Of a stretch of 64,000 bases of DNA, positions 2,474-41,935 are shown one piece after another. The translations under genes and the position numbers were made by a program. Location: assembly GCA_000182565.2 (NCBI GenBank), contig KQ257452.1; one strand, given 5' to 3'. Every line of letters begins with the position of its first letter. Within the stretch, counting starts at the first letter, position 1. The notes below the pieces were generated by a model. The model saw only the letters and a list, made by a program, of their open reading frames with translations. It was not told the origin of the DNA and made no database searches. The DNA is from Spizellomyces punctatus DAOM BR117. Its lineage: Eukaryota.

Positions 2474-5400
2474 TCAAATCAAAGTCGTCTGACAGGGGTT
2501 GTTTGGGTTTTGGAAGAGCTTGGAGGTACGTGATTTAGTTGATTGTTTGTGCTGGAGCAAAAAGGACTTGCACGACGACATACCAGAATAAGATTTTGCA
2601 TTCCACGCCGGAATCTTTTCAATGTCTTCGTCGTCCGACATGTCAGAAAAGTTTTCGACGGGGGTTCTAAGAGGGAATATTAAGAACCATAATCTCAACG
2701 TTGGAGATAAAAAAGAATCACGTACACTTCGTTTTTGCCACCAACACGGGGCGGAGGTACATCCTTCTCCGATGCGACGCTGGGTTCAGGGGACAACGAC
2801 ATGGATGGGGAGGTGACGGAAAAGGGTGGTGATGGCGGCGACGGTGCTTTCACCGGTGGAGCCTTTGGCGTTGTAGGTGCTGATATCGGTTTCTGTACTG
2901 GATTTGGTGCCGGGCGTGTATGGGGTTTTATAACCGCCTCCATCGAAGCAGACGACGTCGAAAACTCAGATTCTTCCTGAATGGGATCAACGGTCCGAGT
3001 GTTGGCAAACTGCTGTCCATCGTCCTCGGATGCAGATGAGAGGGAGTCATCTGTTGATGAGGCTTGTTGTGTGTGCTTTTGCAGACGTGTTTGGAGGTCG
3101 TTCAGGGGAATATGGGTTTGGGTTGGGCGAGGGGGAGTGGAAGCTGGGGAAGAAATTGTTGGACTGGTTGCGTTGCTTGTTTGCGGAGAGTGAGTGTGTT
3201 TGGGGAAGAGCCGGCTAGGTGATTTAGGTGTGGCAGGTTTGGTCGGCAGACGATTGAATGAATTTGATCTGTCCCTCGTCATCTCCCGGTTTCGCTCCTG
3301 GCGTTTAGGTGATGACGGATTACTCAACGACCGAGACCGCTCTCCTGGCATTTGCCACGGTTCCTTCCCTGCACGTTCTTGATTTCTAGCCAAACTCCCG
3401 GCCCTGTCTCGCCTGGGTTCCACCGACAGTCTCCGATCCCGCCCACCTTCGAAGCTCTGTCTCCGATCCAAACTCAATCTTCTGGAAGACCACAAACTAG
3501 GCTCGCGTTTTCTCGTAAACGAAAGCGCTCTCGTGAGTTTTGCGAATCCTTCTTTGAGTTTATTCGGCGAAGGGGGTATGGAGACGGGGCGGAGGAGGGG
3601 CATGCTTCGTACGGATGCGCTGCGGAGGGGTGAACCGGGCCGACGCCGTTCTCGAGTTGGAGAAGCCGACATTGAACTCTCGGAGCCAGAAAACTCACTC
3701 GAATCGTCGTCCCAACGTGCAGCACTGTCGTGCTTCTCCCGTTTCAAAGACGGAAACTTCCATCCACCCAACGTGGGGGTGCCCGCAGGCAACGAGATGG
3801 ATCTAGTATGTCGGCTTCGCTTCTTTTTGATTTCCTTCACGTCCGTCTGGATACGTGGGGGGCGTACATTCATTTTAATTCTCTCGGCCTCTACGACGCC
3901 CTCCACAACCCTGTCAACATATTCCCTCATCTGTCCGTACAATGCATCATCCTCAACCTTCTCCTGGATGGCCTTTTCAAAGGATTGGACCCCGTGTATA
4001 AAATCTTGCGTTGCGTGCGTGTCCTTTTTGTATCTTTTGATAAATCTTGTGGGTGAAATGGAACGTTTGTGGAGAGTTTGGGTGAGGGTATGCTGGATCT
4101 GGGACTTGGGATGAGTGAATTGGGCGGCGGTGTGCGGGTACAGGGTTTTGACATGTGGGGAGGTAGGTAGGGGTGTTTCTGAAGATGGCGGTGTTTGAAT
4201 GAAGCGAGCATGACAGGGATGGTTTATCATGAAACTTACCTTTATGTTCCTTCATGAGCTCTACGGCCAGGTCCCAAGTTAGCTATTGGACCAAGGGAAA
4301 AAAGGATACATATGCGTCAGCCTTTTCAAATGCCCGTCGTCCCCTCACAAATGACGATAATGGTGATGACATACTGGTTCACCAACCCTCAAAAGTGGTT
4401 TCTTCTTGCGAGGCGATCGAGAAACTGGTGTAGTTGGCGCGCTTTTTTCTCGTCTGGTTGGTGATGGCGATGGCGTAGTGGGCTTGCTTTGAGATGGTTC
4501 TACGGGTGCGTGTGCTGGTTGTTGAGCTGGCTGTGGTGGATGTGCAATGCTCGCCTTGATTACTTCTATAGAATCCTGTATACGGAATGACATAAAATTT
4601 GGGACACTTGGGGATAAGTGAAGGCAACAACAACGAACCTTTAGCTCCTCCAAGCGGCCATCGCCTCTTTTCATCCATTCTTCTGTCAGACCCCTCACCA
4701 GCGCTTCTAGTCGCTCAATCTGGGTCGCTGGATCGGATCGAGGCTGTATCAAAGTGTGAGCACTGACATTCTATCTCCACAAATACCAAAACAGAAAGCG
4801 GTTACCTGGGAATCAAACGCTGCACGCAACTTTTGAATCTCTTTTTGTATTGGTTCAAGAGATTGGGTGTTAGGACGTGGCGGCTCTTCTTCGTCCTCAA
4901 GGGTACCAAAAGTTGATGGACGCTTTTCCTGTTGAAGTCGTGCCTAAGATACGTACATTAGTGCCCCACATTGGCAATAATAAAGGGATTGAGAGAAAAT
5001 GCCCATACTTTGATGGCTTCAAGTTCTTGACGCTCTTCAAGGAGGGCTTTACGCTCTTGGTCAAGTTCTTGATGTAAAGTCGTTTTCAAATCCTGGATTT
5101 CACGTTCGTATGCTAGTTTCTGGTGATTTAGGGTTTGGGATAGCGTTGCCTGAGATGGCGGGGCAAGTGCGTCATTCGATTTATTGTCTCGTGGGATACC
5201 ATGTTTTTGCATCAACGCACCTCTCGTTCTTTTATCTCCTTCTCCAATCGCCCTTCCATCTCCCTTCTCAACTGTCGCTCCACTTCAGCCATCCGAGCCG
5301 TAACGCGTTCCATTCCCTCCACAATCTTTTCCGCAAGAGGAGGCGTCGGATCTTCTTGTTTCTCTCGTTTGGGGTGAGACACTGCGTCGCTGTCCTTGAC

Positions 5401-25069: not shown

Positions 25070-25234
25070 ATCGCTTGTTGGATGGCCAGTGTCAAAGGCT
25101 TCAAGTTCTGGAAGTTCAGGACAAAAACAAGTCACCAATCATTCTCTTCTGGGTTAAATTAGATCACGTGAGCAAGTGTCGATGGAGTCAACAGCACGAA
25201 GCTTTCCATCCTCGCGTACTAAAGGCACCCCAAC

Positions 25235-26313
25235 ATGCTTACAGCAAACGTTTCTCGTCCGCTCTCCTCAGAGTCCCCGCCTTCCTCCCTTGCTTCAGAC
25301 TCTTCTCCTGAACGTTCCTTCTCTTCCGTTACGCAAGAGCGACCAACTTCTGCTATACCGCCTCCCGATTTCGTCGATGACATTGATTCAAGTTTTGCGG
25401 ATCTGGCTGGAGAGTCACCTCCGAGTTCCCTTGCATCAAACTCTCCAACACGATCTATGACACCCTTACCTCAGCCACCGGAACCCATTGACATTTCTGA
25501 ACCGGAGAATACACCTCCTCCAGTGCGAACCCTTTTCCCAATTGCACCAGCTGCAGTACCTGACAAGATCATACCACGTCCCACACAAGCCACCGATAGC
25601 ACTCAAACGGATTCAGAACCACTCGACTTTGCGTCGGCATCGCGTCAAATAAAAGAATGTTATGGGCAAGCTAGTCGAAAAGCTGACTACATACGTGCTG
25701 TTATGTCTTTCGGTACCGGGTCTGCCTTGGAGGTGTACGATATGGCGCAGTCGATAGATGAATTAAGCGTGAATATTAGCAGATTGAAGAGATATGATGA
25801 TTCAATTCGCAAATTGATGGAGGAGGCAGTGAACAAAACCAAGGTATGCTTTTATGTTTTTCGTATGATAATTCACGGTGGGCGAAGGGCTTATGCCATT
25901 TTACAGGCCGAGTATGAAACACGTTTGAAGAACCTCCGAATTGAGAAAGAAAAACTAGCGAAACATGAAGCAGCAATTGCCAAAGCCGATGAACATATCG
26001 CAAAAATGGATCGACAGGTGGAGGACTTGCGAGCAAAACGTATACGCCTAGAGGCAGAATATCAACTAGCTTTGCAACGGAAGTTGGCGGAGGAGAAAGA
26101 AGAGGCTGTAAAGCAAAGAAATCAGGTATTACCCCATTGATTGATTGTCTCAGATGTCGCGTCTCATGTCACCTCTGCTCTCAGGTCCGCCTCATGATGA
26201 AAGTGCTCCTGTCGTCCTTCGTACTCTCCTTTGGTGTCTTCCTTCCGCAATTTACCTACTTTTTGTTTTCCCTGGCAGTTCTTTCCATCCATGTGTATGC
26301 TGTAGTGGGCTGA
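25235..26313 (+). CDS. Hypothetical coiled-coil protein with C-terminal hydrophobic anchor
   Basis: Ser/Pro-rich N-terminus, long heptad-rich helix; probable introns ~25843-25907 and ~26126-26184; last exon VLLSSFVLSFGVFLPQFTYFLFSLAVLSIHVYAVVG-stop. Confidence 0.6.
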
Positions 26314-34304: not shown

Positions 34305-34547
34305 GCTGCTGGAAAACTACTGCAAAGTCGGCCCTTTGAAATGGGGGATGCCCAACACCCACGGATTTTGCGTTGCCTGCTGTGCGTGCGCTGCCCTTGT
34401 AGACGATTCCAACTGACTTGAAAGAATAGAATCCGTAAAAACCCTCACCCTCATAACACCCCATTTTTGCTTACGTCATTATCGCGCACACGTGATCTAT
34501 GCCACAAGTTCTTGCCAAGTTGCCAAGTCTTTGCTTGTTGTTGGACG

Positions 34548-36410
34548 ATGGAAGGCAAGATCTCGTCGTTGCCAAATGAATTGCAGTACAGGATCCTTTC
34601 CTTCCTCTCCCTCTCTAGCCAAGAGCAGCCGAAAGCGTGTCCTTTTGTTGTGCCATCTTCAGGCTCCATAAAGATCCCTGATCTACCTGTACACGTCAAC
34701 GTCCAAGATGCCCTCAAGAGCCTAGCCAAACATGGTTTCTACCTTGTCGATAATGTGTTTGAGCCAGCCCTAGCAGAGAATGTCCTTCAGAGTCTCGTGA
34801 AGCTTGAAGCCAAGGGAGAGTTGCGAGAAGCCGGCATGGGCACGGGTATAACACGGTAAGCTACGGTAGTTTTATCTCTTTGCTATTGCGGCAACGTTTT
34901 TCTGACTCGCGGGCGTTTGATTAGACACCACGACGCTTCTAATCGCGGAGACAAGACTCGATATTTTTTGAATAGCGAGCTTACTGGCGGTGTGGACAGT
35001 ACTACGGTGCTCCCGGCACTTCAAACCCTCAAAGCCCATCTTGACTCGCTGACTGCACACATCAATTCCCGCCTATTCCCCGCCCCATCCGACAACCATC
35101 AACTATGTCCAAAAGGGCTCCAGGTGGCGTATTATACATCAAATGGGGCACGCTACGTCAAGCACCGCGATGCATCTCCGTTGAATCCGTACCGCAGATT
35201 GACGATCTTGACATACTGGAACAAAGATTGGACGTCGGACCATGGCGGGTGTTTACGCATCTACCTATCTGATGGAACGACAGTAGATGTAGAGCCACGA
35301 TGGAATCGTATGCTTATTTTCAGAAGCGAATTGGAACATGAGGTTTTGCCGTCCTTTGGGGACCGGTTTGCCATTACCATGTGGCTGTATTCTGAGAAAG
35401 ATATTACGGCGTTGCTCTCGAAACTTTTTTTCAATGGGCCTCCATCACCCCTATTACTAGCAGATCCCAGCAAAGACTCTACCATCTTTATATCCATTCC
35501 CTCTTACCGTGATTCCGAGACACACTCTACCGTCACCTCTCTCCTCCAAACTGCGGCCTACCCACACCGCCTCCATATCACCATCCTGTACCAAGATCAC
35601 CCAATCCAAGACAAAAACCTCCACCCTCCCCTCCCCTCCCATCCTACCATCATCACCCTTTGCATTCCAAGCAAGCAAGCCAAAGGACCGGCCTACGCCC
35701 GCGCACTCATTGCCAAAACATTTGAAAACCAAGACTACATACTCCAAATCGATAGTCACATGCGGTTTGGCGAGGGATGGGACACGTACTTGATTCAATT
35801 ACTTGAAGGTGTACGTAAGGGGCAAGGTCAACATCTTATTACAATGTACCCACCCAACTATGATCCCCTTACGGGAGCAAAGGATCCAGAACCATTTGGA
35901 CCTGTTATGATGTACCCAACGGGATTTGACCAGGATGGCATGTTGAGAATCAGTGGAAGGATGGTACCGCCTACAAATGAATTAGTTCCACAACGACTTG
36001 TTGCGTCGGGATTCTTGTTTGCGCCTGGGACACTTTACGTATCCTGTCCGCCGGATCCAAACTATCCGTATCTGTTCTTTGGCGAGGAAATTGTTCTCAG
36101 TGCCCGGTTATGGACTCGTGGATGGGATTTTTGGACGCCTGGGGATGGAAAGAGGGGTATCGTGTGGCATGCGTGGAAGAGAGGTTATCGGAAGACGTTT
36201 TGGGAGAATGGGAATGTAAGGGGTCGAGAGGAGGCTCAAAAGAGGGTACGAGTGCTCTTGGGAATGGAGGAGGCGGACATGGAGTTTGATCAGGAGATGG
36301 GATTAGGTCGTGTTAGAGGGTTGAAGGAGTTTGAGGCGTTTGTGGGAGTTTGCTTCAAGGAGCGGACCGTTGAGCCCTTTAGCTTTTCCAACTGTCTAAT
36401 TGCTGAATAA
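34548..36410 (+). CDS. Fusion: partial F-box-like motif + PHD/PhyA-type 2OG-Fe(II) prolyl 4-hydroxylase + Gnt1-type (GT60) hydroxyproline GlcNAc transferase
   Basis: One intron, 34856-34924. N-terminal ISSLPNELQYRILSFL; hydroxylase motifs RGDK, YVKHRD (HxD), RRLTILTYWN, GGCLR, HEVLP, RFAITMW; transferase motifs TIFISIPSYRD, AKGPAYAR, LQIDSHMRF, LFFGEEI, ARLWTRGWDF. Confidence 0.85.
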
Positions 36411-36520
36411 CCTGTGACAGAACTCGGCCTTCTACTCTACAAGGTTTCGCCATCACAATAAACATAAAAAACCACGCGGATCCCAAAATTGTCATACATC
36501 CATCCCAACCAATTCGCTCC

Positions 36521-37993
36521 CTAAAACCCATCCTCGGCTGCAGGCTTTTGAGATGGATAGGACCCCAACACCCTGATATCCAGACAGAACTCTTTCAATC
36601 CCTCCAGCGCCAAACGAACCCCCTCGTTCTCAACATGTCCATCAAGCTCGATAAAGAAATAATAATGCCTATGAAACAAACTAGAGTTAAATCTGCCTGG
36701 ATAGTTGGCATTAGGAGAAAGTAACCTACCATGGGCGCTGTCCAGATGGTCTTGAATCAATCTTTGTCAGGTTGATTCCATACTTTTTGAGGACACTTAG
36801 GGCGTCGCAGAGGGCACCGGGTTGGCGGTGATCAACGGTGAAGAAGAGGAGGGTGCGGTCATTGCCGCTTGGGTTGTCGGATGCATTGCCGATGATAAAG
36901 AATCGGGTGGTATTATCTAGGATTACGAACTTTAGAGTGGCCAAGGGTTATCAAAATGGGATGGGCACAGAGGGGGTACCTTTGGCATCTTCAATATTGT
37001 GTGCCAGGATATCAAGACCATACAGACTGGCGCATAGGCTGCTGCAAATAGCGGCCGCACCAGGTTCTCGTGCGGCAAGTTCAGCTGCATGAGCCGTGGA
37101 CGAGACGTTGATGCGTTCCACGCCGCGGAGGTGTTGAGAAAGGTAGGCTTGACATTGTCCAAACCCCTATCATCCAGTCCCAAATGAGACGCCATGTACC
37201 AGAATCTGACCGCACACGACAGCTCACCTGCGGATGACTATACACTTTACGCACTTGAGCCCGTCCCGTTCCACTATTCACTAACAACGCATGATGAACT
37301 CCCAAGTAATGCTCAGCCCGAATCTTGACTCCCCCAACCGACTTTGCAAACCGATCCAAAGTGGCTTGAACAGATCCAAATGTTGAATTCTCAAACGGGA
37401 CGACACCGTACGTGGCTGCTCCACTCTCTACTGCATCAAAGACGTCGGCAATGGTTTCTTGTGCGGCGTATTGGACGCTGTCGCCGAATCGTTCGCATGC
37501 GACTTGGTGGGTGTATGTACCGCGGGGACCGAGGAATGCAATGGTTATCTCTCGTTGAAGGGAAATACTGGCTGACATGATTTCGCGAAATATGGACTGG
37601 ATGGCGGGGGTGGGGAGGGGACCATGATTGAGGGTTTCTAGCTTTTGAGTGGATTGGGGTGAGGTTATGTTCGGCTCTCCTTGATATACGCATCCCAGGT
37701 GGTATACTCACCCTATCATAAATCTGTATTTCTCGACTCGGACGATGAATATGCTCATCCCTATTCCAGTAAAAAAGAAGGCTCGTAAAGACGGAGATAC
37801 GTTGCTGATAAACAAGAAAAAGATGTCCAAAAACTTACGCTGCACGACCTGTTTTGGCCTCCTTGGACTTTGCCAACCCGATATTCACACTCACGCTCGC
37901 CCGCTCATTCAAGAGTCGCACGATATCGGCGTCAAGGCCATCAATCCGGTGTCGTAGACGCTGCAAGTCGGAAGACGGTGGTTGCTCCGACAT
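36521..37993 (-). CDS. pheA: Bifunctional chorismate mutase (AroQ)/prephenate dehydratase with ACT domain (P-protein type)
   Basis: Exon 1 MSEQPPSSDLQRLRHRIDGLDADIVRLLNERASVSVNIGLAK, then RPSRE (CM); IAFLGPRGTYTH, VPFENSTFGSV, YSHPQ, NTTRF (PDT); PGALCDAL...NLTKIDSRP...YFFIE, LGSYP (ACT). Confidence 0.9.
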
Positions 37994-38240: not shown

Positions 38241-39406
38241 ATGCCATCTGCTACGACAAGCCCCGAGTCTGTGATTGTCCACCCCCTCGTCCTCCTGTCC
38301 GTTGTAGACCATTACAACCGAACAGCGCGTAATACCAAGAAGCGCGTGGTGGGGGTTTTGTTGGGACAAAATGTTGGGAGTAAAGTAAATGTGGCGAATA
38401 GTTATGCTGGTATGTTTGAGTTTTGTGAAATAAGGGTTCCTGTGTTGTATTCATTGGTGTCTAGTTCCGTTTGAGGAGGACGATAAAGACCCTTCGATTT
38501 GGTTTTTGGACCATAATTACCATGAAGCCATGTACGACATGTTCAAAAAAGTCAATGGTAAAAGATGCGATTCCGATAACATACCTGCGGGGAGACGTTG
38601 TTCCCAAAACCATACTGATTGTTTTCTAAACTTTCACACACACATAGCAAAGGAAAAGATTGTAGGATGGTATCACAGCGGTCCCAAACTCCGCGCATCA
38701 GATTTGGAGATCAATGAGCTTTTCAAGCGGTATATTCCAAACCCTGTGCTTGTCATTATTGACGTTAAGCCCAAGGATTTGGGAATACCTACCGATGCAT
38801 ATTATGCCGTAGAAGAGATTCACGATGTAAGTAGAGTAACAAAAGTACGAGTACCTAGAACATTGCTCTTTAACTTGTTGGGGATTTCAGGATGGAACCG
38901 CCACAACAAAAACATTCAATCACATCCCCTCCCAAATCGAAGCTGAAGAAGCCGAAGAAATTGGCGTAGAGCATCTCCTTCGTGATATCAAGGACACATC
39001 GGTCGGCACGCTTTCCACTCAAATCACCAATCAACTTAATTCCCTGAAAGGCCTGCAAAACCATTTATCGGATATTCAAAATTATTTGACAAAAGTCCTA
39101 TCGGGGTCGTTACCCGTCAATCATCAAATTGTCTATAACCTCCAGGATATCTTTAACCTCCTCCCCAACCTCCAGGTTCAAGAAACCGTCAAATCCTTTG
39201 CAGTCAAGACCAATGATGAATTGTTGGTCATGTATCTGTCGAGTTTGATTCGGGCAGTGATTGCTTTGCATGGGTTGATTGAAAATAAGTTGATGTTGAG
39301 GGATGCGGAGCGGAAGGAGGAGGGTGGGGGTGAGCCAGAAAAGAAGGATGTGGTGGAGAAAAAGGAGGGGGATAAGACAGAGGAAAAGACAGAAGAAAAG
39401 AAATAG
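38241..39406 (+). CDS. RPN8: 26S proteasome lid subunit Rpn8/PSMD7
   Basis: [17 protein letters not shown]...[49 protein letters not shown]. Confidence 0.97.
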
Positions 39407-39563: not shown

Positions 39564-41428
39564 TCATCTCGGCTCCAACCCAGCCTCGGCATACCCTTTT
39601 AGCATCCTATCAGCATCCAATTTATCTTCCTGCAACACCTCTGTCAAAACCGATAGTCCCTTTTGATGACCCGCCAACGTCTACAAAAAAATCCCAACAA
39701 ATGAGTAAACACCAGTTTAAATCTAAAATTATCCATTCCACATACCTCAAACATCAACTTGAGCTGCTCCTCATCCGCAATCTGATACCCCTCACTCACA
39801 CCCCCCGTCATCGAAAACTGTTTTGAGCTCTTTGTTTGCTGCATAAACGCCCAAATCTCATTCAACCTCCCTCGAAAGACGGATGGTTTTTGAAGATCGC
39901 GTTGCATGGCTTCGAGACGGGATTTGAAGCGTTCTTCTTCGGCGCGGATTGAGTAGCCGCGGTTACGGATCAGTTGGACTTGTTTCAATAGCTTTTGGTA
40001 GTGTGTTAGTGATTGCAAGTTTTTGTTGTTTGGAAAGCAGACGGAAGGCGGGACTTACTTGTAGGACTTTGGCGACAAGGACGGCTTGTTTGCGTTTATA
40101 TTCCTCTAGTTTGGGGAGTGTGTCTAGGTAATGTTTTCGTTGGAGGGTTTCTACTTGGGTTTTGATTTCCTGGTACAAAAAACCATTACAGATGCGAGGC
40201 GTGATACGCGAAACATGAATTTTTCGTTTTTTACCTCGAGTTTGGATTTATGCGCTTGGTAGGCTTGATCTTGCTGTGCGATTCGCTTTTTAATGTCTCC
40301 AAAGCCGACAGCGAGTACAGGAACCATACTGACAATGAACGTGTCAAAATAAAAGTTGTCCTTGTGATTTTTTTTAGGGACATACCATTTTGAATCTGGG
40401 TTGTCGCGTTGGGCTTGCTCATATAATGACAAGTCCGTTCCTTGTGGTGGTCCATAGCGCTGGATTTCAGATGGATGTACAATATTGTAAAAGTAATGCT
40501 TTTTATAAAAAGGTTGTGTGAGTCCTCCATTTCATAAACAGATATCACGGACTATATGGGATCTCACCTTGAATTGACATCGTGGGTCCCGGTCATCCCA
40601 CGCTGCAGCAGATGCCTGTATTTGAGCAGCAATCGCCATGGCAAGTTGTTGCGACCCTGCAGTTGTAGATAAGTCAAGATTTGTCGCTCGTATTTCTTAA
40701 ACACTCATCTTTACTCACCTTGTTGGGTAACGCCAATGGCTTGTGGCTGTTGTGTCGTGAGACCTCCTAACCCACCCCCAAATCCCACCTGTGGTTGCGA
40801 TGCACCCAAGGTCGATAGTTGTTGCTGAGGTTGACCGAATCCACCAAATCCCAATGAACTCGGTTGTTGTGCTTGTGTCGTCGTCGTGGTTCCGAATCCG
40901 CCAAATCCAGCAAAAGTGGGTTGTTGTTGTGGTTGGGAGGTACCGCCAAAGCCGCCAAACCCTGTTGATGCCGTCTGTTGTGGTTGGGATGTTCCAAATC
41001 CACCAAATCCTGTTGATGCCGTCTGTTGTGGCTGGGAAGTTCCAAACCCACCAAAGCCCGTAGACGCCGTCTGTTGCGGCTGAGACGTCCCGAACCCACC
41101 AAATCCCGTCGTACTAGCCCCTGCAGCTGGCTGAGAAGTTCCAAATCCACCAAACCCCGTAGACGCCGTCTGTTGCGGCTGAGAAGTCCCAAACCCACCA
41201 AACCCAGTCGTGGCCTGCTGCTGCTGCGGCTGTTGCAAAGACCCGCTCGGTGTACCAAATCCGCTAAACCCCGATGCTCCCTGTTGGGCAGCACCGAATC
41301 CGCCTGGTGTCGTACCATACGCTGGTGGTAACTCGCCTGGTTTCTGTTGGGCTGGATGTAATGTGTCAGACATGTGGATGAGAGGACATTTTATCGCGTT
41401 TGAACGTGTACTTACAAAAAAAGGACAT
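39564..41428 (-). CDS. NUP57: Central channel FG nucleoporin Nup57/Nup54
   Basis: Micro-exon MSFF; FG repeats; YEQAQRDNPD...MVPVLAVGFGDIKKR, LIRNRGYSIRAEEE, FRGRLNEIWA. Confidence 0.88.
40880..41210 (-). repeat. Coding tandem repeat (~48-54 nt) encoding (T)SQPQQTASTGFGGFG units
   Basis: Several near-identical units such as gacgccgtctgttgcggctgaga / gatgccgtctgttgtggttggga. Confidence 0.85.
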
Positions 41429-41935
41429 TGTCGGGTCGTGGAGATGAGGTTACGGATGAACAGTTTAGATAATAATGTAATGTCCGCAAAGTGTGATCAT
41501 CATCTCCGTCAACAAGTAATTAATGCAGAATCTACGCTTGCAATGCAACCACCTCGACACCATCACGTGCACAGTTGCCACAGCAACAACACTTCTTTTT
41601 GTTGTGCATCGAGCGAGATTCGAACCCTTGGTAGCAAGTTCTTGACAACTGCGACAAGCGGCCTTGTTTGAACGAAGTGGGTGTCATTTGGAGCGCTGGA
41701 CCTTTTTTTTTTTTGTTTTTGGTGACAAAGCTACTGCACAGCCACTCCGCTCTCGGGACTTGCAAAGGGTGATTGAGCAAAGGAAGATATTTGAGGTATG
41801 TGCGTTGTGTGTTGTGTGTGTGGGGTATACCCCTCTTTTCACGCTACATAGCTGACAGTGTGTAATTTTCTTGTCAAGAGAGCGGTGTACCGTCCTTTCT
41901 GACAGGACATTAGCACCGCAACAGTATAAACAACC

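Follow-up and report, generated by a model that had tools for sequence, protein, structure and literature searches.

A single-gene prolyl 4-hydroxylase/GlcNAc-transferase fusion in chytrid fungi, a likely Skp1-modification enzyme

In Dictyostelium and Toxoplasma, a prolyl 4-hydroxylase (P4H), PhyA, and an N-acetylglucosamine (GlcNAc) transferase, Gnt1, act in sequence on the ubiquitin-ligase adaptor Skp1 in response to oxygen availability and are the products of two genes; this route is the oxygen-sensing system known from protists. Pythium ultimum has a dual-function PhyA/Gnt1 enzyme that acts on Skp1 (van der Wel, Gas-Pascual & West, Glycobiology 2019), and the accessible portions of this literature describe the fused enzyme as frequent in protists. 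Skp1 modification is seemingly confined to the protist domain according to the introduction of PMC12101541, and a 2025 paper mentions "pathogenic fungi" in passing. Here we describe a gene that joins the same two catalytic families, one gene here against two in Dictyostelium and Toxoplasma, in a 64,000-nucleotide stretch of contig KQ257452.1 of Spizellomyces punctatus DAOM BR117 (hereafter the window). The product is likely to be a cytosolic bifunctional Skp1-modification enzyme, the chytrid counterpart of the oomycete enzyme 'Phgt', an assignment made by analogy with the characterized enzymes.

An earlier note on this DNA, made from the letters alone, had raised the single-polypeptide arrangement as a possible novelty. 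That part of the note does not stand, as the arrangement was already published for P. ultimum and, in the passages we could consult, is called frequent in protists. The fused architecture is known and widespread and brings no mechanistic novelty. The new point is its occurrence in a well-supported clade of true fungi, which is undescribed in the accessible literature. We found no description of the Skp1 pathway in chytrids in the literature searched, although key reviews and supplements lay beyond the reach of that search and may list chytrid sequences.

A single two-exon gene encodes both domains

The coding region begins with the ATG at 34548, the first in-frame start downstream of a stop codon, and the resulting N terminus agrees with that of the ortholog P0003, a 597-residue hypothetical protein of Spizellomyces sp. 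'palustris'. With the intron retained, this frame meets a TAA at 34857-34859, and a second frame is open from 34860 to the TAA at 36408-36410. Joining 34855 to 34925 yields 597 codons (Table 1). The intron contains CTGAC at 34902-34906, 18 nucleotides (nt) upstream of the acceptor, which we take to be a branch-point-like site. The spliced product and P0003 align over their full lengths with no gaps (69 mismatches, 88.6% identity), and residues 95-112, which span the splice junction, show no mismatch at all. This gapless alignment of two proteins of equal length supports the gene model well and marks the source organism as a close relative of that chytrid. Within exon 2, a 494-codon open frame beginning at 34926 passes through the inter-domain junction without a stop or a frame change. 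The single-intron frame joining both domains, as the earlier note had read it, is therefore borne out by the 69-nt intron, the 597-residue product, and the match to P0003.

The N-terminal half of the protein is a 2-oxoglutarate (2OG)- and iron-dependent dioxygenase. The exon-2 product (P0001) matches PF13640 (2OG-FeII_Oxy_3) at an E value of 1.6e-18 (67.9 bits, cut-off 27), and the motifs KHRD (H183, D185), LEHEVLP (H241), and DRFAITMW (R250) hold the metal triad and the 2OG arginine. An alignment of 44 fused homologues shows no variation at these four positions, and the window protein has all of them. When run against solved structures, a profile built from the 44 homologues has 6t8m as its top match (190.4 bits, 4.5e-55), the structure that the accessible text of PMC7864055 describes as the Dictyostelium Skp1 hydroxylase PhyA (DdPhyA). 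The same profile scores human EGLN1 (PHD2) at approximately 156 bits, a Trichoplax PHD at 140.7, EGLN2 at 135.4, and a Pseudomonas PHD at 134.1 bits, and collagen-type P4H chains at only 22.8 to 23.7 bits. Judged by profile score, the hydroxylase half is nearer to the Skp1 hydroxylase than to the hypoxia-inducible factor (HIF) or collagen hydroxylases. With EGLN1 it shares the double-stranded beta-helix fold family, the HxD...H triad, the 2OG-binding arginine, and an RGD-like motif; EGLN1 differs in its lower score, in having no fused transferase, and in its substrate, HIF-alpha. A similarity search for stand-alone PhyA relatives returned 10 short proteins without names; no Dictyostelium or Toxoplasma sequence was named among them.

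DdPhyA ends directly after its last strand, at Tyr284 (PMC7864055), whereas in the window protein the equivalent ...ITMWLY is followed by a 23-residue linker and then the second domain. The linker is 69.6% identical to that of P0003, compared with approximately 90% identity within the domains. Beyond it, the exon-2 product matches PF11397 (GlcNAc) at 9.6e-62 (209.9 bits, cut-off 21), the family of the Skp1 hydroxyproline GlcNAc-transferase. The transferase half contains SIPSYRD, LQIDSHMRF (D379, H381), and FFGEE, and D379 and H381 are invariant in the 44 fused homologues and conserved in the window protein. It is 35% identical to a stand-alone Gnt1-like protein of Physarum (P0050). No solved structure matches this half by sequence, with either P0003 or the 44-protein profile as the query. 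The highest 19-residue Kyte-Doolittle mean over the protein is 1.17, which indicates no membrane segment or signal anchor. The Pfam check, the lack of a signal peptide or membrane segment, and every motif quoted in the earlier note (HRD, HEVLP, RFAITMW, LQIDSHMRF, SIPSYRD, and FFGEE) are thus confirmed.

The fusion is conserved among chytrids and occurs in other eukaryotes

A word-based search with P0001 found 124 proteins at an E value of ≤1e-5, of which 120 were listed. Among the matches listed are at least 15 proteins named for 13 chytrid taxa, namely Spizellomyces, Rhizophlyctis, two Nowakowskiella strains, Borealophlyctis, Chytriomyces, Cladochytrium, Irineochytrium, Phlyctochytrium, Blyttiomyces, Obelidium, Gonapodya, and Chytridium; 14 of the 15 have both Pfam domains in precomputed annotations. 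The closest named relatives among the matches listed are all chytrids, in agreement with the attribution to a "zoosporic fungus" made from the letters alone. Other named fusions belong to Albugo, Chrysoparadoxa, Skeletonema, Cyclotella, and Chlamydomonas eustigma, and so include an oomycete, diatoms, and a green alga. No other fungal phylum is named among the 120 matches listed, but such a search needs words shared with the query, so the lack of matches does not show absence from other fungal phyla.

The order of the two domains is likewise conserved. We mapped our own domain profiles on 131 sequences (130 search matches plus the window protein): 53 carry the hydroxylase followed by the transferase and 5 carry the two in reverse; 61 contain only the transferase and 12 only the hydroxylase. 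An exhaustive search with P0003 against 1.84 billion cluster representatives gave 6643 matches at an E value of ≤0.001, 3038 at ≤1e-10, and 515 at ≤1e-30, and many representatives align with P0003 continuously between approximately residues 5 and 590. The best 150 of these contain 128 new proteins, among which hydroxylase followed by transferase is the commonest architecture (67 proteins); 5 are reversed, 39 show only transferase domains, two to four per protein, 16 show just one transferase domain, and one has four transferase domains followed by a hydroxylase. The fusions with Gnt1 first and the hydroxylase last (P0024, P0027, P0039, P0053, P0091, and five further representatives) are independent evidence that both activities belong together.

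The closest described system is the oomycete one. Oomycete Phgt shares with the window protein the order of a PhyA-type hydroxylase and then a Gnt1-type GT60 domain in one chain, with no membrane anchor. The alignment of the exon-2 product with P0034, the Albugo laibachii fusion, extends over both domains (32% identity, 2e-66). The window protein differs from the oomycete form in its fungal (Chytridiomycota) host, in sequence (32 to 34% identity), and in a strict LPxxLxxxILxxL motif near its N terminus, which two oomycete-like sequences match only loosely.

Collagen LH3 (PLOD) likewise joins in one chain a 2OG hydroxylase and a transferase that glycosylates the new hydroxyl. It differs in its families, which are unrelated (PF03171, PF13704, and PF25342), in the opposite order of its domains, in its location in the secretory pathway, and in modifying lysine and not proline. 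LH3/PLOD proteins are also the next look-alikes after the protein's own family by a language model, with scores of 0.85 and 0.83 that serve as leads only.

Other arrangements of the transferase domain appeared in the same searches. P0275 (2461 residues), P0276, P0277, P0278, P0279, P0280, and others are very long and contain two to four PF11397 domains in tandem; P0275 also has an AhpC-TSA domain and 2OG oxygenase domains toward its C-terminal end. In P0016, P0018, P0057, and P0095, PF11397 is joined to GT2, methyltransferase, or AhpC-TSA plus 2OG oxygenase modules; one PF11397-GT2 protein is named for an alphaproteobacterial metagenome-assembled genome. Virus-dominated clusters with PF11397 are listed in the Atlas.

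Both halves of the chytrid proteins share a history

Separate phylogenies of the two domains place the window protein with other chytrids. The Gnt1-domain tree (quick IQ-TREE, LG+G4) has 93 rows, after removal of 26 (7 domains shorter than 250 residues, 4 envelopes longer than 420 residues, and 15 near-identical 309-residue proteins). In it, the window protein and P0003 form a pair (support 100) within the chytrids, all 13 rows of which, the deep-branching Gonapodya among them, make up a single clade (Shimodaira-Hasegawa-like approximate likelihood ratio test [SH-aLRT] 99). This chytrid clade is nested in a 53-row set (support 92, not starred), 51 rows of which are hydroxylase/transferase fusions. 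Outside the set lie a stand-alone group of the Physarum type and a separate 14-row group of proteins of approximately 430 residues, most of which, by inspection, have a hydrophobic N-terminal stretch, as expected of Golgi-type GT60 enzymes. By its place in this tree, the transferase half belongs with the cytosolic/fused Gnt1 clade, apart from the membrane-anchored Golgi clade.

The chytrids also group together in the hydroxylase-domain tree (60 rows, after removal of 10 that were short), with support of 90 without Gonapodya and 62 with it. The same subgroups, namely the Spizellomyces pair, the Rhizophlyctis pair, Nowakowskiella/Cladochytrium, and Chytriomyces/Obelidium, appear in both trees, which implies that the two halves evolved together. 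Four reversed fusions are sister to the oomycete-type fusions in the Gnt1 tree (support 95), a position that suggests either a domain swap or a second fusion event. The domain identities given in the earlier note and its link to the Skp1 hydroxylation/GlcNAc pathway accordingly find homology support in the margin of DdPhyA over EGLN1 (190.4 and 156 bits) and in the cytosolic Gnt1 clade, and the per-domain trees that it had called for put the Gnt1 half in the cytosolic/fused clade and the chytrids together in both cases.

A probable Skp1-modification enzyme and its alternatives

If the fusion works as its characterized relatives do, the N-terminal PhyA-type dioxygenase would use O2, 2OG, and Fe(II) for the 4-hydroxylation of one proline in the disordered C-terminal region of Skp1. 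With UDP-GlcNAc as the donor, the tethered C-terminal GT60 domain would next attach GlcNAc to the Skp1 hydroxyproline, and further sugars could follow if the organism has the enzymes. In this scheme, the substrate, the chemistry, the O2 dependence, and the effect on assembly of the Skp1-cullin-F-box (SCF) complex are all carried over from the Dictyostelium, Toxoplasma, and Pythium enzymes. The further proposals of substrate channelling between the domains and of an "O2 sensor acting on SCF" would follow from the same analogy.

Several observations weigh against this assignment. Function was assigned at 32 to 35% identity, and the oomycete comparison was made through Albugo, the characterized Pythium protein being absent among the named matches. 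The two hydroxylase types are separated by the profile only, since the single sequence P0003 gives 6t8m 66.6 bits and EGLN1 65.3 bits. The four short contigs from RNA and read data that match positions 34400-36600 (151 to 208 nt, 99 to 100% identity) all lie inside exon 2; none spans the intron or the linker at 35403-35471, which says nothing either way on a single transcript. They come from three runs that cover small shares of the stretch (0.09, 0.09, and 0.06). No PgtA, Glt1/Gat1, AgtA, or other Skp1-pathway gene is present among the large open reading frames (ORFs) of the window. Finally, the Skp1 substrate and its target proline are taken from other organisms' enzymes and not from this organism's Skp1, and texts of the West laboratory, in the parts accessible to us, describe the Skp1 pathway as confined to protists.

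The last two points also leave room for the strongest rival explanation, in which the fusion is real but acts in chytrids not on Skp1 but on some other substrate, such as a different proline-containing protein of the cytosol, or has one inactive half, and so is not an SCF regulator. We consider this unlikely. The catalytic residues of both halves are all invariant, the P4H half is nearest the Skp1 hydroxylase among solved structures, and the fusion has been retained in 13 named chytrid taxa; moreover, the specificity of Gnt1 for Skp1 is described as well established in the passages we could consult. Candidate Skp1 sequences were sought with a 24-base degenerate pattern for the Skp1 motif NDFTPEEE, which hit 116 metagenome loci. 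Of these, 63 hold real Skp1 C termini, among them 15 full-length genes of several sequence types that lack introns. One full metagenome Skp1 ORF used as a query retrieved only animal-like Skp1s, and no chytrid Skp1, among the 120 matches listed.

A second alternative concerns the origin of the gene and not its function, namely that it reached chytrids by transfer from an alga or stramenopile instead of by descent from a fungal ancestor. The fused clade does mix chytrids, stramenopiles, and green algae, with its deep branches unresolved, and no other fungal phylum is named among the 120 matches listed. Nevertheless, transfer seems quite improbable to us, as the chytrid rows form one clade with Gonapodya for the Gnt1 half, the gene has a spliceosomal intron, its G+C content of 0.49 is in line with that of its flanks (0.38 to 0.54), and a word-sharing search leaves absence from other fungi unproven. 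The composition profile of the stretch shows nothing unusual.

A gene-model artefact, whether adjacent hydroxylase and transferase genes read as one or a chimeric assembly, would fit the failure of any RNA contig to bridge the intron or the linker, but it is very improbable given the 494-codon frame across the junction, the gapless ortholog of identical length, and the recurrence of the same domain order in 53 of the 131 classified sequences and 67 of the 128 further representatives, many of which align in one stretch. A Golgi-type secretory GT60 with an incidental hydroxylase domain, acting on secreted hydroxyproline-rich proteins, deserves almost no weight: GT60 does include Golgi polypeptide alpha-GlcNAc-transferases (Dictyostelium, Trypanosoma cruzi) that share the PF11397 domain and its DxH motif, and such proteins with hydrophobic N-terminal anchors occur among the matches, but the window protein has no hydrophobic segment, the anchored proteins form a clade separate from the fused one, and the hydroxylase is of the cytosolic PHD/PhyA type, far above the collagen-type P4H scores.

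The likely assignment to Skp1 modification has consequences beyond this genome. The orthologues in 13 chytrid taxa place the first two steps of the Skp1 pathway in true fungi, and the fusion in chytrids implies that the pathway was present in early fungi. Chytrids would also offer a free-living, culturable fungal system for studying it.

An N-terminal motif resembling the start of an F-box

Ahead of the hydroxylase core, the protein has a short motif, LPxxLQxxILSxL, that resembles the start of an F-box. Residues 1-23 differ from P0003 at one position (95.7% identity), compared with 73% identity in the adjoining linker (residues 24-49). We searched the region ahead of the hydroxylase core for the strict pattern [LIVMF]P..[LIVMF]...[IVLF][LIVMF]..[LIVMFC], taking fusions with an initial Met and 35 or more residues preceding the core. 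It occurs in 13 of 24 and 17 of 40 full-length fusions in two sets, against a background of 7 matches in 54,514 positions elsewhere in the proteins.

The likeness to F-boxes is partial. The window N terminus matches F-box-like (PF12937) at 0.0097 and F-box (PF00646) at 0.011, with 16.1 bits each, below the respective cut-offs of 24.3 and 20.5. The alignment puts residues 5-24 on profile positions 1-20 only (of 43 to 47), that is, on the LP turn and the first helix; in place of helices 2 and 3, the window protein has a proline/serine-rich linker. No full F-box domain is present, as judged by the lack of a match above the gathering score and of three-helix coverage. In a first set of 15 N termini (45 residues each), 6 matched F-box-like (best 0.0055), 6 matched F-box (best 0.011), 2 matched PRANC, and none matched any other family. 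A second, more diverse set of 20 gave 3 F-box-like matches and 1 F-box match alongside chance-level matches to UBM (2), DUF7120 (2), and DUF2065 (1). Taken together, 9 of 35 N termini matched F-box-like and 7 of 35 matched F-box, all below threshold. A profile of the 15 N termini found no F-box protein in the PDB, the best matches being Prp16 (0.28) and PDE2A (1.6).

We also predicted the complex of the 45-residue N terminus with Skp1, using as the partner a fungal-type stand-in from a metagenome locus and no alignments. The score was 0.42 (runs of 0.43, 0.42, and 0.41), compared with 0.02 for the best of three controls, with a partner predicted local distance difference test (pLDDT) value of at least 52 and at least 70% of contacts agreeing between runs, and was graded 'weak support'. 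In the calibration, which does not cover peptides, 51 of 78 solved complexes attained the mark, as did 2 of 108 mismatched pairs; at scores of ≤0.60, only 5 of the 78 solved complexes attained it, along with all 4 passing mismatches (of 180). Because F-box/Skp1 complexes have already been solved, the pass may reflect only likeness to them.

One interpretation is that LPxxLQxxILSxL is a 'half F-box' that docks the enzyme on the F-box-binding core of Skp1, an idea that we hold to be possible, if on balance doubtful. The flexible C-terminal tail of Skp1 would then remain free and could reach first one active site and then the other. If so, the enzyme would compete with F-box proteins for unmodified Skp1, many PhyA/Gnt1 fusions would recruit Skp1 by mimicking its own partners, and recognition determinants outside the active site would be explained; such determinants outside the PhyA active-site region are reported in the accessible text of PMC7864055. 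The motif offers a testable clue to Skp1 recognition by these enzymes and is the only lead here that goes beyond what is known.

Reversed Gnt1-P4H fusions have, by eye, a similar LP...LLG stretch just ahead of the hydroxylase core. We rejected the idea that the motif travels with the hydroxylase module, as a model from 28 strict motifs (at least 8 bits) found 0 of 12 reversed fusions; it also found 2 of 112 other fusions and 0 of 106 hydroxylase-less proteins.

Genomic neighbourhood

The coordinates of the fusion gene and of its nearest neighbours are collected in Table 1.

Table 1. Features of the fusion gene and adjacent genes (positions in the window)
Feature	Position	Strand	Description
Fusion gene	34548..36410	+	Two exons, 597-residue product
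Exon 1	34548..34855	+	Codons 1-102 plus two bases of codon 103; N-terminal motif, variable linker, first helices of hydroxylase core
Intron	34856..34924	+	69 nt, GTAAGC...TTAG, phase 2
Exon 2	34925..36410	+	Stop TAA at 36408-36410 included
N-terminal motif	34569..34607	+	LPNELQYRILSFL, residues 8-20, LPxxLQxxILSxL, F-box-start-like
PHD/PhyA-type 2OG-Fe(II) prolyl 4-hydroxylase domain	34695..35402, intron within	+	Residues 50-262, PF13640
Catalytic residues	H183 = 35163-35165, D185 = 35169-35171, H241 = 35337-35339, R250 = 35364-35366	+	Metal triad and 2OG arginine
Inter-domain linker	35403..35471	+	Residues 263-285, 23 residues, most variable stretch
GT60/Gnt1-type GlcNAc-transferase domain	35472..36386	+	Residues 286-590, PF11397
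DxH motif	D379 = 35751-35753, H381 = 35757-35759	+	GT60 domain
RNA/read contigs	35132-35282, 35193-35400, 35592-35742, 35741-35889		Exon 2; one from an RNA-Seq library
Prephenate dehydratase	36729-37707	-	PDT and ACT, intron-split; converges on fusion gene 3' end
Rpn8/PSMD7, C-terminal part	38840-39403	+	Proteasome lid; 3.7e-64 to human PSMD7

The neighbours are ordinary housekeeping genes and include those for mitochondrial L28, SND2/TMEM208, LTV1, an arrestin-like protein, a protein O-mannosyltransferase, a homeodomain protein, a fasciclin protein, and isocitrate lyase. The stop codons of the fusion gene and of the prephenate dehydratase gene lie within a few hundred bases of each other. The position of the proteasome lid gene Rpn8 2.4 kb downstream of a gene of the Skp1 pathway is probably a coincidence. 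No tRNA and no Rfam match was found within the 64-kb window. Two long ORFs, at 2698-4251 (minus strand, 518 codons) and 25223-26137 (plus strand, 305 codons), have no Pfam match at an E value of ≤0.001. A tandem repeat at 40946-41211 (period 48/99 nt, 2.7 to 5.4 copies, 79 to 82% matches) sits in a 261-codon ORF at 40711-41496 (minus strand), which likewise has no Pfam match.

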